Positions 9,448 through 28,262 of a stretch of DNA of 54,334 bases are shown in pieces. Under the pieces are notes generated by a model. It searched no databases. It was given only the letters and a program-made list of their open reading frames with translations, and was not told the origin of the DNA. This stretch comes from Eubacteriales bacterium. Lineage in GTDB: Bacteria; Bacillota; Clostridia; Oscillospirales; CAG-272. Position 1 is the stretch's first letter. Every line of letters starts with the position of its first letter. The translations under genes and the position numbers were made by a program. Where the stretch lies: NCBI GenBank assembly GCA_051868045.1, contig JBJDZN010000078.1:1-54334 (forward strand). Reading direction: 5' to 3'.

Positions 9448-10791
9448 ATGAATAAACACAAGACTTTCACAAGATTTTCAGCACTGCTGTTGATCCTTTG
9501 TATGGCAGTCTCCATGCTTACGCCCGGCGTGTTGGCATCCGAGAGCGATGAGGTGACGGTAGACCTTGCCGTGACCTACGGTCAGACCGAGGCAAGATAC
9601 ATGCTGGAAATGGTAAACGAATTCCGAACCGGCGATGAGGCATGGGCATGGAACTCGGACAACACCGAGAAAGTGGAGTATCCGAATCTTTCCGGACTGG
9701 TCTATGACTATGAACTTGAGAAGATCGCCATGCAGCGTGCGGCGGAGATTGCGATCAGCTTCAGCCATACCCGCCCGGACGGAACTTCGTGCTGGACCGC
9801 CTATACCGGTGGTTATCGGTCGGTAGGAGAGAATATTGCCGCCGGATATGCAACGGCAGAAGCTGTATTTGAAGGATGGAAGGAGACAAACGAGTCCTAC
9901 AGCGGTCAGGGTCACCGGAGAAATATGTTGAACACCGGTTTCACGGCGATCGGTATCGGTCATGTGGTATATAACGGGGTTCATTACTGGGTTCAGGAAT
10001 TCAGAAGTCCCACATCTACGGCAACGGATGAAGGGGTCAACGATTCTGCCGCTACGGTGAAGGTGAATATTTCCGCCTCTCAAGCAAGCTCGCTGACTGC
10101 GGCAGTTTCCGAAAGTCAGATCAGCCTGAGCGTTGGGGATGAGATTGCGGCACCCTGTGCCAATGTGACCGCCGTCATGACAAACGGCTGGCCGAAAAAC
10201 ACCTTTTCACTTACTTCCACTGTCGATTGGAGCGTAGGGGATTCCACCATCCTTCAAGTGACTGACAATCAGACGCTGGTCGGCTTAAAGGCGGGAACTA
10301 CGACGCTCAGCGCAACGGTATTGGGTGAGACGTTGACGGTGGCGGTGACGGTGGACGCCGTTGTCCCCAAATTTTCTCTTGGAACGGTGAATGAAAGCAC
10401 AGGCACTCTTTCCACCGGCGACCATTCTGCCTTCCTGTCCACACGTTCTGACACGGAAAGCGGTACCTTCGATCTGCGGCTGATTCTGGTGTCTGAGGAA
10501 AGCCATATTCAGACAGGCGATGTCGTAGAGATTGTCTTTGACAGCGCGGAAACAGATCATACTTATCAGCGTACCATCTCCGATGAGTACATTCAGGGAA
10601 GCACGATGAAGCTCTATCAGCAGGTTTCTGCCGCCGGTGTGATCTACACCGCAGAGTCAGGCTGTGTGATTTATGGCGTGGTTGTCACTGGGATTCCCGC
10701 AAATGGTTTTGACTCGGTTACGGTGACCGTCTACCGTGACGGCGAAGCGATTGTCACCGGGACTGCCTCCTATGATGACATGATAAGATAA
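9448..10791 (+). CDS. Secreted CAP (SCP/PR-1-like) domain protein with Ig-like (Big_2-type) and C-terminal beta-rich domains
   Basis: Signal peptide (FSALLLILCMAVSMLTPGVLASE). CAP core: IAMQRAAEIAISFSHTRPDG...GENIAAGY...GWKETNESYSGQGHRRNMLNTGFTAIGIGHV. Big_2-like stretch: ILQVTDNQTLVGLKAGTTTLSATVLGETLTVAVTV. Confidence 0.85.
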   Translation: MNKHKTFTRFSALLLILCMAVSMLTPGVLASESDEVTVDLAVTYGQTEARYMLEMVNEFRTGDEAWAWNSDNTEKVEYPNLSGLVYDYELEKIAMQRAAEIAISFSHTRPDGTSCWTAYTGGYRSVGENIAAGYATAEAVFEGWKETNESYSGQGHRRNMLNTGFTAIGIGHVVYNGVHYWVQEFRSPTSTATDEGVNDSAATVKVNISASQASSLTAAVSESQISLSVGDEIAAPCANVTAVMTNGWPKNTFSLTSTVDWSVGDSTILQVTDNQTLVGLKAGTTTLSATVLGETLTVAVTVDAVVPKFSLGTVNESTGTLSTGDHSAFLSTRSDTESGTFDLRLILVSEESHIQTGDVVEIVFDSAETDHTYQRTISDEYIQGSTMKLYQQVSAAGVIYTAESGCVIYGVVVTGIPANGFDSVTVTVYRDGEAIVTGTASYDDMIR

Positions 10792-11843: not shown

Positions 11844-12914
11844 TCAGATGTCCGTATGAATGGCATCGCCGGTGCGGGCGGATTCAAATGCCGCCTCCAT
11901 AACCCGCATAACCCGAAGGGCTTCTTCCGGCTTGATTTTCAATTCTGCGCCCTCGATGGCATCCACAAGCTGGAAATAGGTGGGGTCCAGATTGTCGGTC
12001 ACGTCGGTGGGAGCGGACAGCTCGATGGTCTCTACCGTGGAGGGATCCCGCTTTGCCATGGTCTTGGAGGGACCCGAACGGTCGGCGGGAATTTCCACCG
12101 TCCATTCATTCTGCGCCCGAAGAGGACGCACGATCCGACCGGCGCAGGACCAGTCGTCGATCTGAAGGGTACCGCCGGTTCCCAGAACGTACCATCTGGG
12201 ATGCAGGATGAAGTTGTTGGTGGATACCTCAATGTGGGCGGTCAGACCGTCGGACATTGTCATAGTCAGACGGAAATTGTCCTCCACCTCCGGGTAGTTG
12301 ATCGAGTACATCTTGCAGAAGACGTTTTTCACCTTCGCATCGCTCATGTAGAGAATCTGGTCGATGAGATGCACACCCCAGTCCAGCATCATGCCGCCGC
12401 CCTGAGCCTTGTTGCATCGCCAGCCTTCAGGCATTCCACGGGAGCCTTCCACACGGGATTCGATGACATAGGGTTTACCGATCAGCCCCGCCTCAAGCCG
12501 GCGGCGCATCAGGACATAGTCCCGGTTGACTCTGCGGTTCTGGTCAATAGTGAAGACCTTTCCGGTTTCCTTTGCCACAGCCATGACCTCCAGAAGCTCT
12601 TCCGACGACATGGTGACGGGCTTCTCGCACAGAACGTGCTTGCCATGACGGAGGGCATCCTTGCAGATTTCGGCGTGGGTTTCGTTGGTGGTGGCGACCA
12701 GTACGATGTCGATTTCGGGATCAGAAAGCAGTTCCTCCCGGGAGCTGTAGAGGAACAGCCCCTTTTCCTTTGCCGCATCCATGCGGGCGGGATTTATGTC
12801 AAAAACTCCCTTGATCCGCACTCTTGTGTTGCCTTTGGTCAGCTGGGTGTAATGATGACCTGCCATGCCGCCGAATCCGATCATGCCCAACTTGTAGATT
12901 TTTTGCGTTTCCAT
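11844..12914 (-). CDS. Gfo/Idh/MocA-family NAD(P)-dependent oxidoreductase
   Basis: N-terminal Rossmann motif LGMIGFGGMAGHH and the EKP motif (HVLCEKP). I preferred the ATG at 12914 to the TTG at 12920. Confidence 0.85.
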   Translation of the reverse strand: METQKIYKLGMIGFGGMAGHHYTQLTKGNTRVRIKGVFDINPARMDAAKEKGLFLYSSREELLSDPEIDIVLVATTNETHAEICKDALRHGKHVLCEKPVTMSSEELLEVMAVAKETGKVFTIDQNRRVNRDYVLMRRRLEAGLIGKPYVIESRVEGSRGMPEGWRCNKAQGGGMMLDWGVHLIDQILYMSDAKVKNVFCKMYSINYPEVEDNFRLTMTMSDGLTAHIEVSTNNFILHPRWYVLGTGGTLQIDDWSCAGRIVRPLRAQNEWTVEIPADRSGPSKTMAKRDPSTVETIELSAPTDVTDNLDPTYFQLVDAIEGAELKIKPEEALRVMRVMEAAFESARTGDAIHTDI

Positions 12915-12962
12915 TTTCAAGTACCTGTTTGTTTCTTATTTATAGGTTGAATCGGCGTAAAC

Positions 12963-13928
12963 TCAGAACCAATATGCCTTTCCTGCGGTTTCGCAGATCA
13001 AGACGTCCTTCAGGAAGGCAATGGCCTTCTCAAGACCTTCCTTGTTGGACATAAGCCCATCCTCGTGCTCGATGGAGATGGCTCCGTCGTAGCCCACGGT
13101 CTTGAGGGCGGAGATAATGCGGTTCCATTCCAGCTTGTCGTGACCGTAGCCCACGGTACGGAAGACCCATGCACGGTTCTCGATGTCGCCGTAGGACTTG
13201 GTGTCCAGAACACCGTTGACCTCTGTGTTTCGCTTGTCGATCAGGGTGTCCTTGGCGTGGAAGTGATAGATCGCACCCTTCAGTGCCTTGATCGCCGCCG
13301 CAGGATCAATGCCCTGCCAGAACAGATGGGAGGGATCGAAGTTGGCTCCGATGATGTCGCCGACGGCGGCACGGAGTCTTAAAAGGGTTTCGGGATTGTA
13401 GACCACGAAGGAGGGGTGCATCTCAAAGGCAATGTGCTTGATGTGGTGGCTCTCGGCGAATTTTGCCATATCCTTCCAGTAGGGGATGACCTTGGTGTTC
13501 CACTGCCAGTCGAGAATCTTCAGATTGTCGTCGGGCCAGGGGCAGACCACCCAGTTGGGGTAGATCGAGTTGTCGCAGTCGCCGGGGCAGCCGGAAAATC
13601 CGACTACGGTCTCAACACCCAGTGCCTCTGCGGCAAGGATGGCGTTGCGGAACTGACGGTCATAGTCTTCGGCAAGTTTGCGGTTGGGATGCAGGGGATT
13701 GCCGTGGCAGGAAATTGCCGAAATTTCAATGTCATACTTGTCGAGGAGTGCCCTGTAATTTTTCACTGCCTCGGGAGACGCCAACAATTCCTCAGGTTTC
13801 AGATGTGCGTTGCCGGGATAGCCGCCTGCGCCGATCTCGATCTGAGCCACACCCAGAGAGTGCAGATAACGGAGGGCGTCCTCAAAGGACATATCCGCCA
13901 GTACGGGATTCATAACACCCAGTTTCAT
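12963..13928 (-). CDS. Sugar phosphate isomerase/epimerase (xylose isomerase-like TIM barrel), paralogue 2
   Basis: 321 aa with RBS GAAAGGAA. Motifs IAFEMHP, YHFHAKD and ISIEHED are typical of the AP-endonuclease-2/xylose-isomerase-like fold. Confidence 0.82.
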   Translation of the reverse strand: MKLGVMNPVLADMSFEDALRYLHSLGVAQIEIGAGGYPGNAHLKPEELLASPEAVKNYRALLDKYDIEISAISCHGNPLHPNRKLAEDYDRQFRNAILAAEALGVETVVGFSGCPGDCDNSIYPNWVVCPWPDDNLKILDWQWNTKVIPYWKDMAKFAESHHIKHIAFEMHPSFVVYNPETLLRLRAAVGDIIGANFDPSHLFWQGIDPAAAIKALKGAIYHFHAKDTLIDKRNTEVNGVLDTKSYGDIENRAWVFRTVGYGHDKLEWNRIISALKTVGYDGAISIEHEDGLMSNKEGLEKAIAFLKDVLICETAGKAYWF

Positions 13929-13970
13929 ATGCGTAATTCCTTTCGATTTGTCAGATTTTAGTGAAATCGG

Positions 13971-14798
13971 TCAGATGCCCAGCGAGCGCAGATACTCTCT
14001 GGACTGTCTTGCCGCCTCGATGGAGGAAAGTTCATAGGACTGATCCTGTTCGACAATCACATAGTCGATGCCCACGTCCTCGGCTGCGGCGAGAATGGCA
14101 GGGAAGTCCTGAAGTCCCTGTCCCACGGGAACGAAACGGAAGCCGTTGTCCTCCTTGGAAACAGGCTCGGATGTCTTGCCACTGTCGTCGATCAGGGCAT
14201 AAACCGGACCCTGTGCCATCTTCTTGCAGACAAAATCCTTCAGATGGAGGGTTTTCATCTTGCCGATGTATTTTCTGAGGAACTCGCAGGGATCCACCCC
14301 TGCATAGCGTACCCAGCAGGTATCCACTTCGCCCTCGATTTTGTCGCCCATGGCGGCATAAATCTGCTCCAGAATGGGCTTTCCGTCCATCATCTGGAAC
14401 TCGAAATCATGATTGTGATAGGTCAGACGGATGCCCGACTTTGCCAGCAGATCGCTGACCTTTTTGAACATCTCAATGGTGGACTCAAATCTGCCGTCCC
14501 GGTAGTTTTCAATGCCGTACCAGGGGATAGCGCAGTATTTTGCACCGATGGTGGTCAGATAGTCCACTGCCTCCTGACCCTGTTCCATGAAGAGATCGGG
14601 TCCCTGATGGACCGAAATGCAGACAAGACCAAGCTCATCCAGCATGGAGCGGACCTCTTTTGCGGTGTGACCGAAGTAACCGGCAAATTCAACGTAGTCA
14701 TAACCGATTTCCTTGACCGCCTTCAGCGTGCCGAAGAAATCCTTCTCCATTTCATCCCGAACCGAGTAGAGCTGGAGACCGACTTTGAATGGTTTCAT
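13971..14798 (-). CDS. Sugar phosphate isomerase/epimerase (xylose isomerase-like TIM barrel), paralogue 3
   Basis: 275 aa with LTYHNHDFEF, TLHLKDF and YVIVEQD motifs. Confidence 0.82.
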   Translation of the reverse strand: MKPFKVGLQLYSVRDEMEKDFFGTLKAVKEIGYDYVEFAGYFGHTAKEVRSMLDELGLVCISVHQGPDLFMEQGQEAVDYLTTIGAKYCAIPWYGIENYRDGRFESTIEMFKKVSDLLAKSGIRLTYHNHDFEFQMMDGKPILEQIYAAMGDKIEGEVDTCWVRYAGVDPCEFLRKYIGKMKTLHLKDFVCKKMAQGPVYALIDDSGKTSEPVSKEDNGFRFVPVGQGLQDFPAILAAAEDVGIDYVIVEQDQSYELSSIEAARQSREYLRSLGI

Positions 14799-14971
14799 AA
14801 ATATAACCCTACCTTTCCGCTTTTCTGCCGGAAACCGGCAGAAAGCAACCTGAAAATGATCCCAATTTTCTTTTCCATGGGAATCGGAAATTCTGATGAC
14901 CGTCAGAAATTTTCACAAGGCTTCCTTTCTTCCTGTGTATGGCAGAAACCCTGTTCCTGACGGAGTCTGAA

Positions 14972-15002
14972 ACAGGGCTTCGGGCGAAAACCGAAGCCCT
15001 GT
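14972..15002 (-). terminator. Strong hairpin directly after the 15010-16191 oxidoreductase gene (possible partial terminator or processing site)
   Basis: On the minus strand: CAGGGCTTCGG-TTTTCGC-CCGAAGCCCTG followed by TTTCAG. The stem is perfect but the U-tract is weak. A second hairpin (TTCTGCCGG-TTT-CCGGCAGAA) lies at 14823-14843. Confidence 0.5.
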
Positions 15003-15009
15003 CAAAGTT

Positions 15010-16191
15010 TTATACCTCGGGAATTTCGATTTCGATCTCGTGACCGCACTCGGAGGAGCGGACGATACCGTCGATGATTGCCTGATTGTACAGAATCTGA
15101 GAGGAGGGAACAGGAGAGGAGCCGCCATTCTTGATGGCATCCAGGAAGGAACGGATCTTGAGATAGAACTCGCCCTCACGGGTGTTCTCCAGCATGGGAA
15201 TTTCCCAGCAGACCTCAGTGGTGGAGTTGGGCAGTGTGCGGTAAATCTTCATGGGTCCGCCGATAGAGCCGTTCCAGCACTCGGTGGAAGGAATGCGCAG
15301 ACCTGCTTTGGTACCCAGAATCAGGGTATCGCCTGCGGTGTCCATGTTCATTGCCCAGGAAATACGGAAATCAAGGAAGATTCCGCCCTCCAGACGGATG
15401 AATCCGCCTGCGAAGTCGTCAACGCCGAACAGATCGGCGTACTCTGCGGGCTTGCCCTCAGCCGTCCAGTAGGAGGGATCCTTGCCGAAGTAGTCGGTCT
15501 TGAAGCCGGTCACGGTCAGGGGCTTCGGATAGCCCAGAGCATTCAGGCACATATCCAGCGAATAGCATCCGATGTCTGCCATGGCACCGATACCTGCGGT
15601 CTTTTCCTCGATGAAGGAGGTTCCGAAGGGGGTAGGAATGCCTCTGCGGCGACCGCCGCCGGTCTGGATGTAGTAAACCTTACCCAGCTCGCCCGACTGG
15701 ACGATTTTTTTCAGCATCTGCATGTTGGGATTGAACCGGGGCTGGAATCCGATGGACAGGATCTTGCCCGACTTCTTCTCGGCACGCATAACCTCAACCG
15801 CCTCGTCAACGGTAACGGTGAAGGGCTTCTCCAGAAGCACGTTCACTCCATGTTCCAGTGCGTCGATGGCGCAGGGAGCGTGCTGACGGTTGTAGGTGCA
15901 GATGGATACGGCATCCAGATCGGGCTCTGCCTCCAGCATTTCGTGACCGGAGAGATAGCAACGGCAGTCGGGATTGCCCCAGTCCTTCATGAACTGTGCT
16001 GCCTTTCCGGGAACCAGATCGGCGGCCGCAACGATCTCAACGTCGGGCATCTTTTTGTACTCCGACATATGGGCTCCTGCGATCCAGCCGGTTCCGATAA
16101 TGCCGACTTTCAGTTTTTTGTCGGCGGTGATGACCTTTTCCTGCTGGTTTTCCTTGAAAGCATCAAGGCTTGAAACGGTTTTTGCGCTCAT
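15010..16191 (-). CDS. Gfo/Idh/MocA-family NAD(P)-dependent oxidoreductase
   Basis: Rossmann motif VGIIGTGWIAGAHM and EKP motif (VLLEKPF). AAAGGAGA abuts the ORF-track ATG at 16197, so the ATG at 16191 (MSAKTV...) has the proper spacing. Confidence 0.85.
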   Translation of the reverse strand: MSAKTVSSLDAFKENQQEKVITADKKLKVGIIGTGWIAGAHMSEYKKMPDVEIVAAADLVPGKAAQFMKDWGNPDCRCYLSGHEMLEAEPDLDAVSICTYNRQHAPCAIDALEHGVNVLLEKPFTVTVDEAVEVMRAEKKSGKILSIGFQPRFNPNMQMLKKIVQSGELGKVYYIQTGGGRRRGIPTPFGTSFIEEKTAGIGAMADIGCYSLDMCLNALGYPKPLTVTGFKTDYFGKDPSYWTAEGKPAEYADLFGVDDFAGGFIRLEGGIFLDFRISWAMNMDTAGDTLILGTKAGLRIPSTECWNGSIGGPMKIYRTLPNSTTEVCWEIPMLENTREGEFYLKIRSFLDAIKNGGSSPVPSSQILYNQAIIDGIVRSSECGHEIEIEIPEV

Positions 16192-16227
16192 AAACATTCT
16201 CCTTTTTTTGTATATTTTCTCCAGTAG

Positions 16228-16256: not shown

Positions 16257-16376
16257 ACTTTTCACAAGTCCATTATACCTTTTTGAAGATGGATTATCTA
16301 CCACTATCTTTACCATATCTTGAACAATTTTTACTTTTTGACTGGAATCAGAGAAAGAAGAGGCAGGGGGGTACGT

Positions 16377-17216
16377 ATGCGCAACGAAACCATATGGCTC
16401 AATGTTCCCGAAAGCAGGGTTCGGGTGGAGGAGTCGTTTGAAAACGGGGAAGGCAGAATCTGCGAGATGCACTACCACGATGAAATCGAACTGCTTCTGA
16501 TCCGTTCGGGGGCGGTGTCCTGTATCGTGGACGGCAAGGAATATCCGGCAAATGAGGGGGAGATTCTGGTTGTCAACTCCCGGGTTCCCCACTATACGGT
16601 GTCAAAGGCGAAGGGGTCCCGCTATCTTCTGCTTCAGTTCCGTATGGGTGAGTATCGGGAAGATGCCTTCCTGTCCGATCTGTACGCCTATCAGATCACC
16701 GGTCAGGTTCCCGCTCGGTCGCTGTCCGATCCCGCCATCGTTGATGCCATGGAGAAAATTCTTCGCGAATCCGACAGGCGGGAGCAGGCGTACAACTATG
16801 TGATCAAATCCTGCGTCTATCTCATCCTTGCCCGCCTGATCCGGCAGGAGGTTCTGCCCAATCCCGAAGAGAGCATCGATCGAACCGGTATCAAGCGGCT
16901 CCGTCCGGTGCTGGACTATATTGATAAGAACTACGCTGCCTCCATAACGCTGGAGGATGCAGGAGCCCTTCTGGGGCTCAATCCTTCCTATTTCTGCCGC
17001 CTCTTTCGTAGCGTGACCGGCTCTACCTTCACCGAATACCTGAATTATGTCAGAGTGAGGCATTCCGAAGTGCTTCTGCGCACCACCAATGAAAACATCA
17101 CTGCCGTGTCCATGGACGTGGGTTTTTCCTCGGTGACCTACTACAACCGGGTCTTCAAAAAGCTCATGAATTGCACTCCGTCCGTCTATCGCCAGCTTCG
17201 CTACCGCAATATCTGA
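16377..17216 (+). CDS. AraC-family transcriptional regulator (cupin sensor domain plus HTH)
   Basis: ATG at 16377 follows GGCAGGGGGG. The N-terminal cupin-like region includes MHYHDEIELLLIRSG. The C-terminal AraC HTH includes ITLEDAGALLGLNPSYFCRLFRSVTGSTFTEYLNYVRV...VGFSSVTYYNRVFKK. Confidence 0.9.
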   Translation: MRNETIWLNVPESRVRVEESFENGEGRICEMHYHDEIELLLIRSGAVSCIVDGKEYPANEGEILVVNSRVPHYTVSKAKGSRYLLLQFRMGEYREDAFLSDLYAYQITGQVPARSLSDPAIVDAMEKILRESDRREQAYNYVIKSCVYLILARLIRQEVLPNPEESIDRTGIKRLRPVLDYIDKNYAASITLEDAGALLGLNPSYFCRLFRSVTGSTFTEYLNYVRVRHSEVLLRTTNENITAVSMDVGFSSVTYYNRVFKKLMNCTPSVYRQLRYRNI

Positions 17217-17318: not shown

Positions 17319-17347
17319 TTTACAAATCGCCCGATTTGTGGTAAAAT
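17319..17347 (+). promoter_or_regulatory. Sigma-A promoter for the cytochrome c operon
   Basis: TTTACA (17319-17324), 17-nt spacer ending TGG, TAAAAT (17342-17347). It would give a leader of about 175 nt before the ResB-like gene. Confidence 0.65.
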
Positions 17348-17526: not shown

Positions 17527-18534
17527 TTGGTTTACATCAAGAAATTCAATCGGATAGCGTATATATTGCTGTCTGTGCTGGTGGGAATCTTCCTGCTGGT
17601 TGCCGTATGCGCATCCTTTGCCGGCGATAACAGCCTGTTCACCGGTGATGGCGAGTCGATTCTGAGTCAGTGGGTACCTCTGATTCTGTTTTCGGTTTAT
17701 GCCCTGATACAGGTAGGCTGTCTTGCCCTCTACCGCTTCGGATTTGGAGTCTATAAGATCGGTTTTGTCCTTCTTCATGTGGGAATTCTGGTCATGCTGG
17801 TGGGATTTCTCGCCGGTGCTCTGGGAGGAGAGCAGAGCTACTTCAATCTGACTACAGGCAGTTATTATGACGGCTATTATGACAGCACCGGTAACTACAA
17901 CAGCCTTGGTTTTGGCATTCAGATCACCGATTTCACGGTGGAAAAGTACGAAAGCGGCTCGGATAAACACTATCACGCCGACCTGCTGATCACTGACACG
18001 TCAACAGGCGTTCAGGAAGAGGCAGTGCTGGAAGTCAATCACACCTATCGGAACAAGGGATGGAAGATCTATCTCATGTCTTACAGCGACGGCAAAACGG
18101 TGGGAGAGCTTGCAAACCGTCAGATTGACAACTCCTTTGAGGCAAACGGCTGGACTGAGCTTGCCGAAAAGATTGCCGCAGTGTACCCTGTGGATGCCGA
18201 GACAAGTTATCTGTGCTATAATCTGAATTCGGGTACCTATCGTGAGACGACAACGGACGCTTTGACCGTCAGTGCCACCATGCCCCTTTACGGTCATGTC
18301 GTGGTCGAGAACGGAAAGCTGACGATCTATGTTTACCCCGAGCAGGAGCTTCTCCTGTTCAAACAGGATCCCGGAGAATATGCTGTGCTGGTCGGCATGA
18401 TCATGATCTTTGTGGGTGCCGTTATGACCTGTCTTCTGCCCCGGCGGAAAAATACCGATAAGGATGAGACAGTGAAGACGAATGCCGACAGGGATTGTGA
18501 AAAATCCTCGGGCGGAAAGGCGGGTAAATCATGA
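17527..18534 (+). CDS. resB: Cytochrome c biogenesis protein ResB/CcsB (System II), short form
   Basis: 335 aa. It has an N-terminal TM, a TM with a conserved His (FVLLHVGILVMLVG), the ResB-type periplasmic signatures ITDFTVEKYESGSDKHYHADLLI and VNHTYRNKGWKIYLMSY, and a C-terminal TM. The stop overlaps the ccsA start (ATGA at 18531-18534). The start is uncertain because the TTG at 17527 directly abuts AAGGAG (17521-17526). Confidence 0.8.
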   Translation: MVYIKKFNRIAYILLSVLVGIFLLVAVCASFAGDNSLFTGDGESILSQWVPLILFSVYALIQVGCLALYRFGFGVYKIGFVLLHVGILVMLVGFLAGALGGEQSYFNLTTGSYYDGYYDSTGNYNSLGFGIQITDFTVEKYESGSDKHYHADLLITDTSTGVQEEAVLEVNHTYRNKGWKIYLMSYSDGKTVGELANRQIDNSFEANGWTELAEKIAAVYPVDAETSYLCYNLNSGTYRETTTDALTVSATMPLYGHVVVENGKLTIYVYPEQELLLFKQDPGEYAVLVGMIMIFVGAVMTCLLPRRKNTDKDETVKTNADRDCEKSSGGKAGKS

Positions 18535-19349
18535 CAGGACCGATTTTAAAGGTTATCGCACTTATCGCCGCCTTTCTCTACGGCGGGGCATTTGTTCTGG
18601 AGCTGATGTACGGGAATGCCCGGAAAAAGAATGACGATGAACAGGCGGCGAAAAGACTCCGTCTGATCAGCCGGACTTTCTGGGGACTGGGATTTGCGGC
18701 AAATCTGACCCTTGTGGTCAACAACTATCTGCATAACGGGTATGTTCCTTTTGTCAGTATCTATCAGGTTCTGACCTTCCTTGGAATCTGCTTTCTTCCT
18801 ATCTATTTCTATATGCATCTCGTCCGCAGGGGAGAGTGGATGGCACGGTATTTTACACTGGTACCCACGGTGATCATGTTGGGACTGGTCTTCATGGATG
18901 CGACCGATGTCTGGGAATTTCCTCCTGCACTTCAGTCGCCCTGGTTCGTCCCCCATATTCTGGTTTATATGATTGCCTATACCATGGGGGCCGTGGAATT
19001 TCTCATGTGCGTTCAGTCGGTGTTCACCACCAGCCGAAAGGATAAACTCCGTCTGGAGGGCGGCGTGTATGACTGCGTCTGCTTCCTGTTCCCCTTCATG
19101 ACCATGGGAATGTTCTTCGGAGCCATCTGGGCAAACGAGGTCTGGGGAGCCTTCTGGGCATGGGACTTCAAGGAGATCTGGTCTCTGGCAACATGGCTGA
19201 TCTATATGCTGTATCTCCACTTCAGAAGGGAACCGAAGCTGAAAAACATCGCTCCCGTTTTTGCGCTGCTGGGATTTGTGGGAATCGTTATTACCTTCCT
19301 TTTTGTGCAGTTTATTCCCGCAGCGTCTATGCACACCTATTCAACTTAA
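18531..19349 (+). CDS. ccsA: Cytochrome c biogenesis protein CcsA/ResC (haem handling, WWD domain)
   Basis: 272 aa, polytopic. Tryptophan-rich WWD motif WANEVWGAFWAWDFKEIWSLATW, with flanking His residues (PHILVYM, YLHF). Confidence 0.9.
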   Translation: MTGPILKVIALIAAFLYGGAFVLELMYGNARKKNDDEQAAKRLRLISRTFWGLGFAANLTLVVNNYLHNGYVPFVSIYQVLTFLGICFLPIYFYMHLVRRGEWMARYFTLVPTVIMLGLVFMDATDVWEFPPALQSPWFVPHILVYMIAYTMGAVEFLMCVQSVFTTSRKDKLRLEGGVYDCVCFLFPFMTMGMFFGAIWANEVWGAFWAWDFKEIWSLATWLIYMLYLHFRREPKLKNIAPVFALLGFVGIVITFLFVQFIPAASMHTYST

Positions 19350-19398
19350 GTCAATTGATTCATACCAATACAGGATAAGATTTAGGAGGTTATTTGGA

Positions 19399-21675
19399 AT
19401 GAAGCCAAAAGAAAAACAATCATCCTCATCCAAGCCGGACAGCGGCAGAAAATTCCTGCTCAGACGCTTTGGCATCTTTGCGGGTTTGACTCTGACGATG
19501 GCGGCATTGTTGGTGGGTCTTCTTGCCTGCAACAGAAATAAGCCGGGGGACACGTCAACGGATAATACGAACACAACTCCCCCGTCCACGACCGTTCCTT
19601 CCGGTGATTATCATTCGCCATCGGGCATATCCATGTCGGAAGATGGCGCATATGCCTATGTATCGGATGAGACGGGCTGTGCAGTCTACAAGATCAACAC
19701 GGCAGACGGCAGTATTGCGGCAAGCTATGTATCGGATCTGGCAGTACATAACGTAGTCGCAAGCGGAGATCGGGTATATGTTACCGAAGGAGCACTGGGC
19801 GGCAAGCTGGTGGTGCTGGACACCAATCTGGCGACCGTAGGCTCTGTTGTCACCGGTCATACTCCTTATGACGTGGTGATCACCGGAAATACCGCATATG
19901 TGGCAAACCGCTTCTCCAACAGCGTATCGGTGGTGGATCTGGGATCCATGACTGAGACCAAGGAAATCCCCGTCACCAGAGAGCCTGAGTCCATGGCACT
20001 TGCCGGAACAGAACTGTTTGTTGCCTGCCATCTTCCCGAAGATGCTGCCAACAGTGATGTTGTCAGCGCAAATGTGGATGTCATCGACACGGCAAGCAAT
20101 ACCGTCACCAAATCCATCAGTCTGGTCAACGGTGCGGGAAATGTGAAGGACATCGTGGTCACTTCCGACGGAAAGACCGCCTATGTGTCTCATGTGGTCG
20201 CTCACTATCAGTATCCGACCACCCAGCTTGACGCCGGATGGGTCAATACCAATGGTATCTCGGTTATTGATGTTGCCTCCAAGGAGGTCAAATACACCTT
20301 CCTTTTGGACGATCTGGAGCATGGCGCAGCCAATCCCTGGGGTCTGGCACTGTCTGAGGATAATTCCTACCTTTACTGCGCAATTGCGGGAACCGGTGAA
20401 CTGATCCGCACCAATCTGTCCAAACTGTCAACGCTGGTTTCCCGTGCCGGGAAGACCGGTTCTGCGGTAAGCGATGTTTCCGAGATTGTCAACTACATTC
20501 CTTTTGCGGCAACCGTTAAGGAGCGTATCGAACTGGGTGGAACCGGTGCCAGAGCCATTGCTTATGCCAACGGCAATGTCTATGTTGCCGAGTATTTTAC
20601 CGGCGATGTGAAGGTTGTGGACGGTAAGAATATGTCCGTTTCTTCTACGCTGCCAATCGGAACTCAGCCCGAAGCCGATGATGTTCGTCAAGGCGAGATC
20701 TATTGGAACGATGCCACCATCTGTTACCAGAACTGGCAGTCCTGCTCTTCCTGTCATCCTGACGCAAGATCGGGCGGCTTTAACTGGGATGAGTTGGGCG
20801 ACGGAATCGGGACGCCCAAGAATACCAAGAGCATGGTGATGTCCCTGCGGACTCCCGCTGCACTGGCAACCGGTATCGAACCCACTGCCGAGAGTAATAT
20901 CTACGGAAGCGTCAGCGGCACGCCTCTTATGAATGCCACAGCCGAGTCGGGTCATATTTCTGAGACGATCATTGCTTATTTGAAGTCTATCATTCCTGAA
21001 TCTTCACCTTATCTGAACGATGACGGAACTTTGAGCGATCTGGCTAAGCAGGGTAAGGAACTGTTCTCTGAGTACAACTGCTCAAAGTGTCACCCTGCTC
21101 CCCTCTATACGGATATGACGATTCGTAATACCACAACAACGGAGTTTGATCCCTCATGGGAACAGAGTCCTATGGATACCCCCACTTTGGTTGAAATTTG
21201 GCGTAGTGCTCCGTGGACCTATATCGGACACTTTACCGATATGACCGAGCTGGTAAAGTATATGGCAAATCAGTGGGGAAAGACCATCTCCGATGAGAAT
21301 GCCAAGGCACTGGCAGAATATGTTCTCTCCATTGGTTTGGAGGGCGAGACCTACGGAGCAGAGCAGATTCTCAACAGCGACAGTTCCTACAATACGCTGG
21401 TACCCGGTACTACGATCCGCTCTCTGACGGTTCGCCAGCAGGAAGAGGGCGCACCGAATGCAACGGTTACCCTGACCCTGTATGATGCAAGCGGCAATGT
21501 GATCGGTTCCGCCAGCGGCAGTATCACCGCAGGCGACTACAATACCATCTTCAATGTCACGCTTGATAAGGAAATCTCCGTTCCCGAAAACATCGGAGCA
21601 GATGCGTACTATGTGGTATCCATTAAGGACGCATCCGGCAATAATCTGGCAACAGATTTGAAAATCACCAACTGA
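19399..21675 (+). CDS. Lipoprotein: YVTN-type beta-propeller fused to a di-haem cytochrome c peroxidase/MauG-like domain, plus a C-terminal beta-sandwich-like tail
   Basis: 758 aa from the ATG at 19399 (RBS AGGAGG 19384-19389). Lipobox LLAC (Cys44). Repeated propeller blades: AYAYVSDETGCAVYKIN, GDRVYVTEG..LVVLD, NTAYVANRFSNSVSVVD, KTAYVSH, NVYVAEYFTGDVKVVD. Haem sites are CSSCH (nt 20743-20757) in GEIYWND...QSCSSCHPD and CSKCH (nt 21079-21093) in GKELFSEYNCSKCHPAPLYTD. TPTLVEIWRSAPWTYIGHF follows, matching the CCP PSLRN..APY.H.G pattern. Confidence 0.85.
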   Translation: MKPKEKQSSSSKPDSGRKFLLRRFGIFAGLTLTMAALLVGLLACNRNKPGDTSTDNTNTTPPSTTVPSGDYHSPSGISMSEDGAYAYVSDETGCAVYKINTADGSIAASYVSDLAVHNVVASGDRVYVTEGALGGKLVVLDTNLATVGSVVTGHTPYDVVITGNTAYVANRFSNSVSVVDLGSMTETKEIPVTREPESMALAGTELFVACHLPEDAANSDVVSANVDVIDTASNTVTKSISLVNGAGNVKDIVVTSDGKTAYVSHVVAHYQYPTTQLDAGWVNTNGISVIDVASKEVKYTFLLDDLEHGAANPWGLALSEDNSYLYCAIAGTGELIRTNLSKLSTLVSRAGKTGSAVSDVSEIVNYIPFAATVKERIELGGTGARAIAYANGNVYVAEYFTGDVKVVDGKNMSVSSTLPIGTQPEADDVRQGEIYWNDATICYQNWQSCSSCHPDARSGGFNWDELGDGIGTPKNTKSMVMSLRTPAALATGIEPTAESNIYGSVSGTPLMNATAESGHISETIIAYLKSIIPESSPYLNDDGTLSDLAKQGKELFSEYNCSKCHPAPLYTDMTIRNTTTTEFDPSWEQSPMDTPTLVEIWRSAPWTYIGHFTDMTELVKYMANQWGKTISDENAKALAEYVLSIGLEGETYGAEQILNSDSSYNTLVPGTTIRSLTVRQQEEGAPNATVTLTLYDASGNVIGSASGSITAGDYNTIFNVTLDKEISVPENIGADAYYVVSIKDASGNNLATDLKITN

Positions 21676-21692
21676 ACAGGAGGTCAGATGAA

Positions 21693-24600
21693 ATGAACGA
21701 GACAAAACGAAAAGGACTTCTTGGAAAAATTCTGGTTCTCTCTGTGGCACTTGTCATGATCGTGACGCTGGTGTGCATTGCACTGCCGTCCGAAAGTTAT
21801 GCGGCGACCACCATTGAGAGATCCGAAATGCTGGACGATATGATGAACATGGCGACCAGCTATGTTGTCGTCTACCATAAGCAGCTTGGCGGATCCCACT
21901 ACGCCTATTCCGAAGGTTTGGCAGAAGAGTCAAACGATGGCAGTACCAGCGTAGAGGGTAACGAATCAGTCTTCAATCCCGGTTCCAAGATGACTCTTAT
22001 CACCCTTTCCTATCAGGATGGTAATGTCGTTAAGGAAGAAGCAACACTTGTCAGATGCAGCAGCGGTGTCATCCGTGATCCTGACGTGTCGCCGGACGGA
22101 ACGAAGATCGTATTCTCCATGAAGGAGAAGTCAACCGATGATTACCACCTGTACATTTTCGATCTGACCACCGGTAAGAAGACGCAGATCACCTTCGGCA
22201 GCGGTGTTGCTGATATCGAACCCGTCTTCTGTGCCGACGGCAGCATTATCTTCAACTCTACCCGTGACATTCAGACGGTTGATTGCTGGATAACTCCTGT
22301 CTCCAACCTCTATAAGTGTGATGCCGACGGCAGTAATATTACCCGTCTGGGATACGATCAGGTTCATACCACCTATCCCACCACAACCGAAGACGGTCGT
22401 ATCCTTTATACCCGTTGGGACTACAACGACCGGACTCAGATGTATGTCCAGGCAATCTTCCAGATGTTTGCCGACGGTACCAATCAGACCGAGGTTTACG
22501 GTAACGATCTGTCCAACCCTACTTCGCTGATTCACACCCGTGAAATCCCCGGCGCAGACGGTAAGTATATCACCATCACCTGCGGACATCACCAGGTACA
22601 GTGCGGTAAACTGGCGATCCTGAATACCAATCTGGGCAGAGACGTGTCGTCTGCAATCGACTATGTCTGGGACGACAGTTACACGAAGCAGCTTGAAAGT
22701 TCCTACGATAATGATACGGCATATTATCAGCAGGGAAGAGTCTATAAGTACCCTTATGCCATCAATGAGGACACCTTCCTTGTTTCTACAGCAGAAACCT
22801 ATTCCGGTGTCAGCACCGCCTTCAATATCGAACTGATTAACACAAATGGAGACTCGGTTGTGATTGCCGAAGGTAATACCAGCTTCCCGGCAAGCCAGAT
22901 CGTTCCGATCAAGACGACAGCTCTGTTCAACCGTGCCTCTCTTGTCGACTACAGTATGAATTACGGCTACTTCTATGTCGGCAATGTTTATGACGGTCAG
23001 GATATTGCGGTCGGTACCGTCAAGTATCTGCGTGTTGTAGGACTTGAGTTCCGCTCTTCTGCAATCGGTGCAACCAACGGCAGAGGCACCGGTTCTTCCG
23101 ACCCCTACTCCCCTGTTTCAACCGGTAACGGTTCATGGGATGTCAAGGAGGTTTTGGGTATTGTACCTGTCTACGAGGATGGATCAGCACTCTTTACCTG
23201 TCCTGCGGGCATACCGGTCTACTTCCAGCTATTGGATGAGAACGGCTATGTGGTGCAGACCATGCGAAGCTGGTCTACCCTCCAACCCGGCGAATACTTC
23301 TCCTGTATCGGATGCCATGTGGATAAGAATCAGGCACCCTCTACCAATGCCAAAGTCACGCTTGCCATGAATAACGGCGTCTGCGAGTTGCAGCCTGATC
23401 TGTGGATGTCCTCCTTTGAGGAATATGAGGGCTTCGATCCCTATGTGGACGATCCGATCGGATTTGATTATCTTACCGTTGTTCAGCCCATTCTGGATCA
23501 GAGCTGCGTAAGTTGTCACAGCGACTCTGTCACCGCTTATAAGGATATTGCGGCAACTGCACTGGGCGAAGGCTTTGATGCGACACTGGCTGACTACCTG
23601 TTCACGACCCGTGACAGCTGGTACTATACCACTACGACACCTGCGGCTGATTGGAAGACCGCCGATGTCAGCGCAGACTGGACACTGGACTACGGTCCCT
23701 TCGGTAAGATCGGTACCGCTCCCGGCTCCATCAATACCGTCTGGACTTCCAATGAGATCTATCTGAGAAAGACGGTTTCGGTCACCAATGCTGAACTGAA
23801 CTCCTACTTGCTGAATCTCTACCTGGCTTATACCGGTACGGTTGAGATTTCGGTCAACGGAACCGTTATCTATACCGGATCCGGCGAACAGACCCAGTTT
23901 ACCAATGTCACCCTGTCCGGCGACGCAGTCAAAGCGTTCAAGCTTGGAAACAATGAGATCGCAGTCAAAGTGACGGCAACCTCTTCGGGCGGTCAGTTCT
24001 TTGACATGGCATTGATCCGGAGTCTGGGTGGCTCGTCCGGAAGCTCTGGCGGAACGGTGACCCTCTTCTCCAAGGGATCCGAATGGACTTATACCACCAG
24101 TTCTGCCGACAGTTACGGCTTCGGAACTGCTGGCGATTGGACTTCAGCCGACTTCGATACCACCGGATGGCTGACCGGTAAGACTCCCTTCGGCAACCGT
24201 GTGGTTGGTCAGACGACCGATTGGGCGACCAAGGGCAATAACTACCTGTGGGCAAGAAAAACCTTCACCGTAGATGATCTTTCCGATCTGGGTGCCTCCT
24301 TCGGTCTGTACATGAACGTCTTCTATGACGATGACTTCTATGTCTTCCTCAACGGTCACCTGATCTTCAGTAACCCCGGAAAGTGGAACGATGCTTATGA
24401 GGACATCAAGACCACCGGCGCAGCCTATGTAAAGCAGGGCGAGAACGTGATCGCCATCTGCCTGCATCAACATGACGGCGGCTATGAGTTTGACATGAGC
24501 CTGTATACGGTTCCGACGGCAAGCAATGTGGAAATCTCTCTGCAGAGTACCGATGTTTATGCCCGCCGTATGAAGAAGGCATTCCCTCTGTCCTATCTGG

Positions 24601-25763
24601 TGCTGACTGCATCCAAGGGCGAGAGCAGCGGACAGTTTGTTGCAACTTCTGTCAATAAGTATACCAACTGGGTATCTTCCATGAGCCAGTGTGAAATGCT
24701 CAGCCCCTATTCCTACGGCGCATATAAGTCCAATCTGATCAAGATGCTCCGTGAAGGTCACGGTGATCTGACCGAAGAGGAAATTCGTGCGATCGCTTGC
24801 TGGATTGACCTCGGCGTTCCCTGCTACGGTACTTACGATGTGAAGGAGTACTGGGGAACCAATGAGATCCGCGAGTTCGAGGAAGAGGAAAATAAGCGTG
24901 AGTTCTACGAAAAACTCAACGAGTATGCTATCCTTGCCCGTGCCGGTCAGACCCCTGCCGGTGAGATTACCATCTCCTATACTCACAGTTCCAGTGTGGA
25001 TTCCGTTACCGGTGAGGGTATGGTTACCCTGTACTACGATTCCAAATATGCGGCAGGTGATACCATTTCGGTAAAACTTCCCGACGGTCAGAAGTATCTG
25101 GGACTGTCCCTGTCCTCCAGAGTCGGAGAGAGCATCATTTACTGCCCGAACTCCACCTTTGAGATGACCCTGCCCGATCTCAGAACCTGCTATCCCAATA
25201 CCATGGATCCCAACCTGGCAGTCGATTATATTGTGAATACCATTACCGCAAGAATCGTTCCCGAGAGCGAATTGACGGAGGTTCACAATCTTGCCCAGAA
25301 CTCTTATGACCTGACCAATGCCAGTGGTTCCTATCCTCATGTGACGGCATCCTCGGTCAAGGAAAATAAGGCATATTTCGAAGCCCGCAACCTGATTGAC
25401 GGCTTCACGGCAAACCGTGATAAGGGCGAGTATCCGAGCCAGTCCTGGGAGGCTCAGAAGTTTGACGAAAGCACGACGCTGACCATCGACTTCGGTCGGA
25501 CCGTGAAGGTCGATGAACTGGTATTCTATATCCGTCGCGCAAGCGGTGACTCTTACTTCACCAATTGCACGGTAACGCTGTCTGACGGAACCGTTCTGCC
25601 TCTGTCGCTGACCGATTCCCGTGACGCACAGACCATTGATCTCGGCGGCGTTGAGACCACGTCCCTGACCTTCTCCGGATTTGTTGTCGAGACTTCGATC
25701 AACAACGGTTCTTATGCCGGAATTTCCGAGATTCAGGTTATGGGTACCGAGGTACTCGGATAA
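21693..25763 (+). CDS. Giant secreted protein: PD40/TolB-like beta-propeller, two CxxCH haem c sites (HzsA-like arrangement), two galactose-binding-like modules and a C-terminal F5/8 type C (discoidin) domain
   Basis: 1356 aa with RBS AGGAGG 21678-21683 and signal peptide ...CIALPSESYA/AT. PD40-type blades: DPDVSPDGTKIVFSM...YHLYIFDLTTGKKTQITFG, PVFCADGSIIFNS, TTEDGRILYTRWDYNDR. Haem sites are CIGCH (nt 23304-23318) and CVSCH (nt 23505-23519). Two similar modules occur: WTLDYGPFGK...IYLRKTV...VEISVNGTVIY and GWLTGKTPFGN...LWARKTF...DDFYVFLNGHLIF. The C-terminus is discoidin-like: NLIDGF...TLTIDFGRTVKVDELVFYIRR...GISEIQVMG. Confidence 0.85.
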   Translation: MNETKRKGLLGKILVLSVALVMIVTLVCIALPSESYAATTIERSEMLDDMMNMATSYVVVYHKQLGGSHYAYSEGLAEESNDGSTSVEGNESVFNPGSKMTLITLSYQDGNVVKEEATLVRCSSGVIRDPDVSPDGTKIVFSMKEKSTDDYHLYIFDLTTGKKTQITFGSGVADIEPVFCADGSIIFNSTRDIQTVDCWITPVSNLYKCDADGSNITRLGYDQVHTTYPTTTEDGRILYTRWDYNDRTQMYVQAIFQMFADGTNQTEVYGNDLSNPTSLIHTREIPGADGKYITITCGHHQVQCGKLAILNTNLGRDVSSAIDYVWDDSYTKQLESSYDNDTAYYQQGRVYKYPYAINEDTFLVSTAETYSGVSTAFNIELINTNGDSVVIAEGNTSFPASQIVPIKTTALFNRASLVDYSMNYGYFYVGNVYDGQDIAVGTVKYLRVVGLEFRSSAIGATNGRGTGSSDPYSPVSTGNGSWDVKEVLGIVPVYEDGSALFTCPAGIPVYFQLLDENGYVVQTMRSWSTLQPGEYFSCIGCHVDKNQAPSTNAKVTLAMNNGVCELQPDLWMSSFEEYEGFDPYVDDPIGFDYLTVVQPILDQSCVSCHSDSVTAYKDIAATALGEGFDATLADYLFTTRDSWYYTTTTPAADWKTADVSADWTLDYGPFGKIGTAPGSINTVWTSNEIYLRKTVSVTNAELNSYLLNLYLAYTGTVEISVNGTVIYTGSGEQTQFTNVTLSGDAVKAFKLGNNEIAVKVTATSSGGQFFDMALIRSLGGSSGSSGGTVTLFSKGSEWTYTTSSADSYGFGTAGDWTSADFDTTGWLTGKTPFGNRVVGQTTDWATKGNNYLWARKTFTVDDLSDLGASFGLYMNVFYDDDFYVFLNGHLIFSNPGKWNDAYEDIKTTGAAYVKQGENVIAICLHQHDGGYEFDMSLYTVPTASNVEISLQSTDVYARRMKKAFPLSYLVLTASKGESSGQFVATSVNKYTNWVSSMSQCEMLSPYSYGAYKSNLIKMLREGHGDLTEEEIRAIACWIDLGVPCYGTYDVKEYWGTNEIREFEEEENKREFYEKLNEYAILARAGQTPAGEITISYTHSSSVDSVTGEGMVTLYYDSKYAAGDTISVKLPDGQKYLGLSLSSRVGESIIYCPNSTFEMTLPDLRTCYPNTMDPNLAVDYIVNTITARIVPESELTEVHNLAQNSYDLTNASGSYPHVTASSVKENKAYFEARNLIDGFTANRDKGEYPSQSWEAQKFDESTTLTIDFGRTVKVDELVFYIRRASGDSYFTNCTVTLSDGTVLPLSLTDSRDAQTIDLGGVETTSLTFSGFVVETSINNGSYAGISEIQVMGTEVLG

Positions 25764-25860: not shown

Positions 25861-25951
25861 GTATCGGGAAATCCTGTTTTTGCCGCCTATCGCAATTATT
25901 GCAGTTTTCAGATCGGGAAGTCCTTTTTTCCCTTCTTTTCTGCCAAAACTA

Positions 25952-28190: not shown

Positions 28191-28219
28191 TTGACATTCG
28201 GCTCCATTTACGGTAAAAT
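28191..28219 (+). promoter_or_regulatory. Sigma-A promoter for the GH25 gene
   Basis: TTGACA (28191-28196), 17-nt spacer, TAAAAT (28214-28219). The ORF-track start at 28191 is this -35 box, so it was rejected as a start codon. Confidence 0.7.
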
Positions 28220-28262
28220 AGGGGAAAATACCCCAAATTTTACCGAAGGGAATGGTCAGATT

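Follow-up and report, generated by a model that had tools for sequence, protein, structure and literature searches.

We analysed a 54-kb stretch of DNA from a pig-gut Clostridia bacterium (the window), which contains a gene whose 758-residue product (the target) resembles a lipoprotein fusion of the hydrazine synthase (HZS) subunits beta and gamma. The gene and its parts are listed below with the evidence for each, where CCP stands for cytochrome c peroxidase, CBM for carbohydrate-binding module and Ig for immunoglobulin.

19399..21675 (+), target gene: HZS-like beta-gamma fusion lipoprotein, 758 aa (hidden Markov model searches, phmmer, AlphaFold2, Foldseek, family profile)
19384..19389 (+), Shine-Dalgarno sequence AGGAGG of the target gene (sequence reading)
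19399..19530 (+), signal peptide with lipobox GLLAC, the codon of the lipidated Cys44 being 19528-19530 (pattern match, conservation in close homologues)
19606..20658 (+), seven-bladed propeller of YVTN/HZS-beta-like type, residues 70-420 (AlphaFold2 strands, Foldseek match to 5c2v_B, phmmer)
20203..20253 (+), propeller loop H269-N285, Y-x-x-P-T-T-Q-L-D-x-G-W-x-N-T-N, with Y270 and D278 (alignment, conservation)
20659..21333 (+), di-haem module similar to CCP, MauG and HZS gamma, residues 421-645 (family profile against the PDB, Foldseek search of the C-terminal model)
20722..20724 (+), Cys442, family-specific, 7 residues ahead of the first CxxCH (78/80 sequences)
20743..20757 (+), haem-1 motif C449-S-S-C-H453, equivalent of gammaI and presumed catalytic haem (aligned with CASCH of HZS gamma)
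21079..21093 (+), haem-2 motif C561-S-K-C-H565, equivalent of gammaII and presumed electron-transfer haem (aligned with CLECH of HZS gamma and CVSCH of CcpA)
21334..21672 (+), beta-sandwich tail, residues 646-758, 113 aa, Ig/CBM-like and Clostridia-specific (AlphaFold2, Foldseek, homologue comparison)

The ATG start at 19399 sits within an open reading frame (ORF) covering 19261..21675 (+), and an identical 758-aa gene was called in an independent assembly of the same organism (L001). Homologues were collected by a scan using one genome per species, which yielded at least 545 loci, 80 of which were kept. The AlphaFold2 model of the target was built from 62 homologues and reached a mean pLDDT (the per-residue confidence of the program) of 85.5 and a pTM (its global confidence) of 0.85. 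From the N-terminus, the modules are the lipobox, a seven-bladed propeller (70-420), a module with two CxxCH motifs (421-645) and a beta-sandwich tail (646-758). The corresponding elements of the model are the propeller strands (74-419, interrupted by a helical insertion at 340-373), a mostly helical module (428-644) and a beta-sandwich (652-757).

The original prediction, made from the DNA letters alone, had placed a lipobox LLAC at Cys44. The G-L-L-A-C segment ending at this residue is preceded by a basic n-region and a hydrophobic stretch of about 20 residues, and residues 19-43 form a helix in the AlphaFold2 model. The lipobox was borne out, as a PROSITE-style lipoprotein pattern fits GLLAC and the segment is conserved among close homologues. 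A lipobox occupies this position in approximately half of the 62 aligned homologues, the remainder having an uncleaved N-terminal hydrophobic helix; since either the lipobox or the retained helix is present, all 62 are predicted to be membrane-anchored outside the cytoplasm. The proposed anchoring to the outer face of the membrane also fits the adjoining genes of System II cytochrome c maturation.

Residues 74-419 form 28 strands, corresponding to seven four-stranded blades mostly modelled with pLDDT above 95, and the TIGR02276 YVTN repeat model scored 44.7 bits against a cut-off of 27.85. The YVTN-type propeller recognised earlier is thus confirmed. The repeat signature and the seven-bladed fold are shared with the YVTN surface-layer propellers (1L0Q) and with those of YncE/BtuG type, but both these kinds of propeller have no HZS-type loop, helical insertion or haem fusion and rank below HZS beta in the Foldseek search. 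The helical insertion 340-373 is common to HZS beta in a collinear phmmer alignment. In the same type of alignment, the loop 269-285 faces chain residues 212-228 of 5c2v_B, with D278 opposite the glutamate of the HZS loop, reported to be the Mg-binding residue by Dietl et al. 2015. The loop is near-invariant across phyla (Glu or Asp at position 278 in 79/80 sequences) and its pLDDT is about 39, as an interface loop would give. Loop 245-260 of HZS beta approaches the inter-haem tunnel (PMC12607021); judged from the alignment, loop 269-285 of the target is the equivalent of this tunnel loop.

Both haem sites announced by the original prediction exist, the segments G.IYWND...SCSSCHPD, GKELF....CSKCHP.PLYTD and TPTLVEIWRSAPWTYIGHF being all found in the protein. 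No variation was seen in the two CxxCH motifs (449-453 and 561-565; about 110 residues apart in the target) across 80 homologues from at least 8 phyla, and all 80 sequences have two CxxCH motifs and no extra N-terminal haems. Conservation reaches at least 95% at 71 positions over these 80 sequences, the tunnel-loop equivalent and the helical insertion of the blade among them. Around haem 1, the positions conserved at this level include R430, G432, D438, C442, Q444, W446, P454, N462-W463-D464, D468, K474 and T485-P486-P487. Cys442 stands where CCP and HZS gamma have a serine in the alignments.

The presumed distal pocket of haem 1 (residues 455-530) differs from that of the di-haem CCPs and comes in Clostridia as two alternative cassettes: class A, NWDNLNDG...TPPVM.TGIR..., and class B, NWDE(L/G)GDG...TPP(C/V)L.TG.E...GSVSGTPLWN. 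The target belongs to class B; compared with the class A protein P0002, its propeller is 89% identical and its residues 455-530 only 47%. We searched by co-variation for columns of the alignment of the neighbouring HZS-alpha-like proteins that would track the two classes and found none, so that co-evolution gives no support to a site shared between the alpha-like and beta-gamma proteins. As a separate observation, the target gene is a mosaic: window positions 20761-20988 (residues 455-530) and 21115-21234 (residues 573-612) encode segments 47% and 52% identical to P0002, and in these segments the target resembles the otherwise more distant P0006, P0010 and P0017 (60-65%).

A beta-rich tail of about 130 residues had been proposed at the C-terminus. 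A beta-sandwich is indeed present, modelled with pLDDT of 84-97, but its length is 113 aa. At E~1e-4, Foldseek matched it to the domain of Wzt that binds carbohydrate, to a CBM specific to porphyran (8wae) and to sandwich domains of beta-galactosidase. The tail is missing from non-Clostridial homologues, which match residues 70-645 only.

When the target was searched against the PDB with phmmer, the two first ranks were occupied by HZS beta (5c2v_B, E=1.6e-19, residues 70-406) and HZS gamma (5c2v_C, E=2.2e-10, residues 426-568). With the family profile, the E-values were 2.3e-29 for HZS beta and 8.9e-30 for HZS gamma, followed by 3o5c (1.7e-16), 1iqc (2.3e-10), 2c1u (3e-09) and YhjA 9qdt (6e-09), then by MbnH and MauG, the similarity to MauG being weak (E~6e-3). 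Foldseek ranked 5c2v_B at the top for the whole model (E=1.5e-25, target-normalised template modelling score, or TM, of 0.86). Because propellers swamped this list, residues 420-758 were modelled separately (pLDDT 73.5, moderately confident). The top match of this C-terminal model was 5c2v_C, followed by 22 di-haem CCP chains and then by MbnH, with E-values of 3e-7 to 4e-5 for the top 23; the TM was only about 0.4, a consequence of the low confidence of the apo model. The best NCBIfam matches were hydrazine_BC, hydrazine_beta and hydrazine_gamma (NF052342, NF052340 and NF052341, respectively), at scores far under their cut-offs (75.7 vs 1250, 70 vs 560 and 47.3 vs 625 bits). The fusion of HzsB-like and HzsC-like parts previously put forward therefore holds as homology and architecture, and the two-domain di-haem peroxidase fold is upheld by Foldseek on the C-terminal model and by the family profile. 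The significant match to Pfam CCP_MauG (PF03150) expected along with it failed to appear for the target, which scored 19.9 bits against a threshold of 25.6, two homologues being above it (P0086 with 30.7 and P0182 with 45.6 bits).

The next gene downstream begins 18 nt past the stop codon of the target gene and encodes a second di-haem protein:

21693..25763 (+), HZS-alpha-like di-haem protein, 1356 aa (PF18582, DUF7402, collinear profile match to 5c2v_A)
23304..23318 (+), alpha-like haem motif CIGCH, equivalent of alphaI, with no Tyr at +4 (motif reading, alignment)
23505..23519 (+), alpha-like haem motif CVSCH, equivalent of alphaII (motif reading, alignment)

This partner consists of a TolB-like propeller, an HZS_alpha middle domain, two inserted jelly-rolls and a C-terminal DUF7402/F5-8C region. 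PF18582 was detected at E=2.9e-31 and DUF7402 with 37 bits, the GH2_N-like and F5/8C matches being weak, and the profile matches to 5c2v_A are collinear (E=1.8e-16). The insertion (window 23520-24535, alpha-like residues ~610-948) brings about 340 residues forming two GH2_N-like jelly-rolls and interrupts the second cytochrome domain after CVSCH and ahead of the conserved segment ...GHGDLTEEEIRAIACWIDLGVPCYG; it is lacking in the Verrucomicrobial alpha-like proteins L033 and L055 (42-43% identical). The suggestion that the target is one half of a two-protein haem enzyme gained support from this adjacent HZS_alpha gene, from the occurrence of the pair in 27/30 Clostridial loci and from two homologues, P0182 (1440 aa) and P0236 (1336 aa), in which HZS_alpha, propeller and di-haem module are in a single polypeptide. 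By this Rosetta-stone evidence, the two window genes would make one enzyme.

HZS (HzsA with HzsB/HzsC, or with fused HzsBC in Ca. Scalindua; PDB 5C2V) is thus the best match in the PDB by both sequence and structure. The two systems have in common the seven-bladed propeller with helical insertion and tunnel loop, the CCP/MauG-like di-haem gamma part, an alpha protein with TolB-like propeller, HZS_alpha middle domain and two CxxCH, hence four haem motifs per alpha-beta-gamma unit, as well as a gene order with beta-gamma before alpha (the anammox order is taken from PMC12758564). Features that define HZS include the third thioether of gammaCys165, the proton donor gammaAsp168 at the distal water of haem gammaI, gammaHis144 between the two haems and, at alpha haem I, the proximal ligand alphaTyr591 and the His587/Zn site (PMC12607021, PMC12758564). 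In the alignments with 5c2v_C, gammaCys165 belongs to a stretch shown as inserted with respect to the target, gammaAsp168 aligns with a threonine and gammaHis144 with Ala490, a position occupied by V/A/S/I in the family. In the partner, the segment CIGCHVDKNQ has no Tyr four residues past the His, so that the haem of CIGCH is presumably His-ligated. The identity to HZS is about 21-23%, and the target locus further differs by the missing alphaTyr591/Zn site, the extra Cys442, a lipoprotein anchor in a Gram-positive organism, the beta-sandwich tail, the glycan-binding modules of the alpha-like partner and the lack of anammox partner genes, no hao or hdh gene being found in the 54-kb window. Because the defining residues are absent, the kinship to HZS stated earlier stands as that of a relative and not of a member: on its sequence, the target is a relative of HZS and not a hydrazine synthase.

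Taken together, we consider it roughly 70% probable that the target is the beta-gamma half of a tetra-haem oxidoreductase with two sites, which would work outside the cytoplasm on a small molecule. Once the target has been exported by Sec and lipidated at Cys44, ResB and CcsA would attach two haems to the target and two to the alpha-like partner, and both proteins would assemble on the outer face of the membrane by analogy with HZS. The invariant loop P273-T-T-Q-L-D278-x-G-W281 would then insert at the subunit interface and gate an internal tunnel, again if the HZS arrangement holds. Haem 2 (C561xxCH) would take electrons from, or give them to, a partner and relay them to haem 1 (C449xxCH), which would lie in the pocket conserved across phyla (R430, D438, C442, Q444, W446, N462-W463-D464, D468, K474 and T485-P486). 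A small diffusible substrate would be converted at haem 1, from which the product could pass to the His-ligated alpha-like haem. Both active haems are buried in enzymes of HZS architecture (PMC12607021), and as the same would apply here, a small species of nitrogen or oxygen (NO, NH2OH, nitrite, H2O2) is a likelier substrate than a polymer. Peroxidase activity would be one among several candidate chemistries.

The accessory modules of the family are diverse. The Clostridial alpha-like proteins comprise 1356-2090 aa and contain F5/8 type C (CBM32-like), DUF7402, GH2_N-like jelly-roll, FIVAR and cadherin-like modules. A type I dockerin was found on the alpha-like protein of one Ruminococcus and one Lachnospiraceae locus (L022:12082-18354 and L006:12086-17437), on an alpha-like or beta-gamma-like protein among Clostridia metagenome-assembled genomes (MAGs; P0140), and an N-terminal dockerin on some beta-gamma homologues (P0086, P0090). 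Other beta-gamma homologues are fused to Laminin_G_3, Calx-beta or PKD modules. As far as domain content can tell, the dockerins imply attachment of these homologues to cohesin scaffolds. Because such modules vary by lineage and the haem pockets and tunnel loop do not, we ascribe to them a role in positioning and not in substrate binding: the glycan-binding modules, the dockerins of homologues and the tail would place the enzyme on the cell surface or on a fibre without defining its substrate.

The first alternative takes the same modules differently. An enzyme of MauG/RoxA type might oxidise a protein side chain, or else a glycan or other polymer bound through the lectin-like modules (in Clostridia CBM32, jelly rolls and dockerin, and in other phyla the formylglycine-generating-enzyme-like, or FGE-sulfatase, domain). 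MauG and MbnH are detectable relatives and RoxA-like_Cyt-c segments occur in homologues; glycan-binding modules or dockerins decorate the alpha-like proteins and a dockerin some beta-gamma homologues, FGE-sulfatase domains are fused to alpha-like proteins of other phyla, the tail is CBM-like and the upstream AraC regulator has a ligand-binding cupin. We nevertheless regard this explanation as unlikely, since the lineage-variable modules contrast with invariant haem pockets and tunnel loop, which fits targeting better than substrate binding, since both active haems would be buried and since the similarity to MauG is the weak one given above.

According to the second alternative, which we find somewhat less probable again, the target is a bacterial di-haem CCP that would reduce H2O2 at the surface and so protect a strict anaerobe, with the propeller as a scaffold and the alpha-like protein as an accessory or electron donor. 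The family profile matches CCPs (3o5c, 1iqc, 2c1u, YhjA 9qdt), Foldseek ranks 2-23 of the C-terminal model are all CCP chains, and P0086 and P0182 exceed the Pfam CCP_MauG threshold. The two-domain di-haem fold is that of the CCPs (CcpA/BccP/MacA/YhjA), MauG and MbnH (PF03150), and the CCP-like motifs D-T-P-T-L and P-[YW]-x-[HY]-D-G (P-Y-x-H-D-G-like) are conserved in the second domain. The target itself remains under the Pfam threshold, however, and HZS gamma outranks the CCPs every time. Opposite the inter-haem Trp/His, the alignments place Ala490 of the target (Val/Ser/Ile in the family), and a Met/Tyr sixth ligand appears not to be conserved, the CCP Met-ligand position 622 being Met in the target and F/H/Y/S in the family. 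Finally, the fusion to a propeller and the obligate pairing or fusion with an HZS-alpha-like di-haem protein are foreign to CCPs, MauG and MbnH.

A genuine hydrazine synthase forming N-N bonds as in anammox, here in a gut Firmicute, would account for the homologues of all three subunits, the anammox gene order, the four CxxCH per unit and the kept loop acid, but this very improbable reading was rejected and is largely refuted by the sequence, given the NCBIfam scores far below cut-offs, the lack of counterparts of gammaCys165, gammaAsp168, gammaHis144 and alphaTyr591 and the lack of hao/hdh in the window, and PMC12758564 concluded likewise for other non-anammox homologues.

Several observations weigh against the two-site oxidoreductase that we favour. 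The distal region of haem 1 (455-530) was modelled poorly by AlphaFold2 (pLDDT 53-75), so that the ligands and the tunnel are inferred. The target deviates from its family at A487 and L489 (20857-20865) and at R576 (21124-21126), where homologues have Pro (79/80), Met (69/80) and His/Tyr (79/80), respectively; P0001, 92% identical to the target, likewise has A487, L489 and R576. The HZS gamma His with which position 576 aligns is a possible sixth ligand of the bis-His haem gammaII, and the three substitutions suggest that the activity of the target may differ from the family norm. The dockerins and glycan-binding modules might point to a macromolecule as the substrate instead. Among the neighbours, ORF clustering over the 30 Clostridial loci revealed no electron donor gene and no thiol-reductase gene either. 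Lastly, a search of RNA-seq runs for the operon found no run holding it; the operon is held by two DNA runs only, one labelled pig gut metagenome and the other simply metagenome.

Among the kept loci, 30 come from Clostridia MAGs (Lachnospiraceae, Oscillospiraceae, Ruminococcus, Acutalibacteraceae) sampled in pig, goat, sheep, deer, rabbit and chicken guts; their proteins are 38-61% identical over the full length and monophyletic in a distance tree. The other 51 loci belong to Planctomycetota, Verrucomicrobiota, Lentisphaerota, Kiritimatiellia, Hydrogenedentota, Nitrospirota, KSB1 and Omnitrophota, with identities of 36-41% over residues 70-645. The alpha-like gene adjoins beta-gamma in 27 of these 51 loci, usually upstream. 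The whole family amounts to 1187 representatives at 50% clustering (E<=1e-30).

Co-located genes for HZS-alpha-like and fused beta-gamma proteins have been described outside anammox bacteria, where they lack key HZS residues and, as both studies concluded, differ in function (Dalcin Martins et al. 2023, PMC10732223; Hagglund et al. 2025, PMC12758564). A few Oscillospirales alpha-like matches appear in a supplementary BLAST table of PMC12758564 and are not discussed there. The clusters of that study resemble ours in belonging to anaerobic heterotrophs, in the co-located alpha and fused beta-gamma genes, in the two canonical beta-gamma haem motifs and in the HZS catalytic residues that are not conserved. 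In contrast with its clades I-III, in which alpha comes first, the Clostridial order is beta-gamma before alpha; the Clostridial loci have no FG-GAP/CRTAC1 or ABC-SBP neighbour and possess dedicated resB/ccsA genes and usually an AraC regulator. The loop acidic residue, reported as lost in the PMC12758564 homologues, is kept in the target family, which also lacks their extra N-terminal haems and the Trp at the gammaHis144 position. Non-anammox clusters of HZS-like alpha and beta-gamma genes are therefore already known (2023, 2025); what is new is the Clostridial clade.

Searching the literature, we found no description of this clade, of its System II linkage, its lipoprotein anchoring or its dockerin/CBM decoration, nor of the kept loop acidic residue, Cys442 and the two distal-pocket cassettes. 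No report of cytochrome-c-bearing dockerin proteins was found either, and searches on dockerin and cytochrome c in cellulosomes and on c-type cytochromes in Lachnospiraceae returned nothing relevant. Gut and rumen Clostridia are usually held to be free of c-type cytochromes, and HZS was long believed to be without relatives. The locus represents a deep, monophyletic branch of the HZS-like family in animal-gut Clostridia, which is accompanied by haem-attachment genes of its own and usually by an AraC regulator. It would be evidence, on sequence grounds, that some strict gut anaerobes make extracellular c-type cytochromes, and the invariant Cys442, the N-W-D motif and the tunnel loop define a new putative active site. 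The compact four-gene unit might serve, through heterologous expression, to probe the HZS scaffold outside anammox.

A broader and doubtful proposal is that gut and rumen Clostridia use a cell-surface, sometimes cellulosome-docked, HZS-type two-site tetra-haem enzyme for an unrecognised extracellular conversion of small nitrogen or oxygen species. The candidate chemistries of such a docked enzyme, which we put forward just as tentatively, are the reduction or condensation of NO or hydroxylamine, or a peroxide-driven reaction. If true, a surface HZS-type enzyme would mean a new reaction in gut nitrogen/redox cycling and would show the role of an ancestral, pre-anammox HZS scaffold.

The genes and signals surrounding the target and alpha-like genes are:

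16320..17216 (+), AraC-family regulator with cupin and helix-turn-helix domains, probable operon regulator (Pfam AraC_binding/Cupin_2/HTH_18 in the L001 gene call)
17319..17347 (+), candidate sigma-70-like promoter ahead of resB, TTTACA-17-TAAAAT with TG (consensus scan)
17527..18534 (+), short ResB/CcsB-like System II cytochrome c maturation protein (PF05140 ResB, E=3e-22)
18531..19349 (+), CcsA/ResC-like haem lyase subunit with WWD motif WGAFWAWD (PF01578, E=2.7e-28; TIGR03144 ccsB, 133.9 bits)
25915..25932 (+), candidate terminator-like hairpin downstream of the alpha-like gene, with a consensus promoter of the next gene behind it (consensus match alone)

The promoter and the hairpin are listed as candidates only, because the counts of the promoter and terminator scans were not above those of shuffled sequence. 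The ccsA gene overlaps resB by 4 nt, and the NCBIfam matches of the AraC-family regulator are generic (AraC/MelR/PocR). The order resB-ccsA-betagamma-alpha recurs in about 25 gut or rumen Clostridia MAGs. In the 30 Clostridial loci, where the alpha-like gene follows beta-gamma as counted above, ccsA was present in 25, resB in 23 and AraC in 14, directly upstream of resB in 10 of these 14 and in either orientation. Clustering of the ORFs of the 30 loci detected nothing else conserved beyond AraC, resB, ccsA, beta-gamma and alpha. Within the whole window, CxxCH motifs occur in the target, in the alpha-like partner and as one chance motif in ValRS. Long antisense ORFs lie over the haem genes, at 19555-20322(-), 20428-20955(-), 21154-21750(-) and 24144-25340(-); they were rejected as genes, their clustering across loci arising only from the shadowing of conserved coding sequence.

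Two further features concern the loci of other phyla. Directly downstream of beta-gamma, 19 of the 51 non-Clostridial loci encode a 379-aa tandem RidA/FkbO-Hyg5-like protein without obvious signal peptide (L028, L032, L036, L037, L041, L042, L051-L054, L061, L062, L065, L066, L068, L072-L074 and L078; for example L066:11800-12939). Reactive imines are hydrolysed by RidA-type proteins, and this neighbour may be a hint of nitrogen chemistry. The alpha-like proteins L071:5176-9180 (Nitrospiraceae) and L037:5383-9636 (Hydrogenedentes) end in an FGE-sulfatase domain (E~1e-45), and sulfatase genes lie at most 10 kb away in 7/51 non-Clostridial loci.

Divergent from the AraC gene, 11844-16197 (-) encodes two GFO/IDH/MocA oxidoreductases and two xylose-isomerase-like TIM-barrel proteins, a set that presumably resembles the 3-keto-glycoside or C-glycoside deglycosylation clusters of DgpA/DgpBC type. 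It was rejected as part of the haem system, being present only in the nearest relatives (L003, L004 and L018). The rest of the window is unremarkable Firmicute sequence, with housekeeping genes (HPr kinase, Der, PlsY, ValRS, LtaS-like) and a gene for a GH25 muramidase. The muramidase (28191-30398, +) is fused to BspA-type leucine-rich repeats and, like a CAP (cysteine-rich secretory protein) domain protein encoded at 9448-10791 (+), is unrelated to the haem operon.

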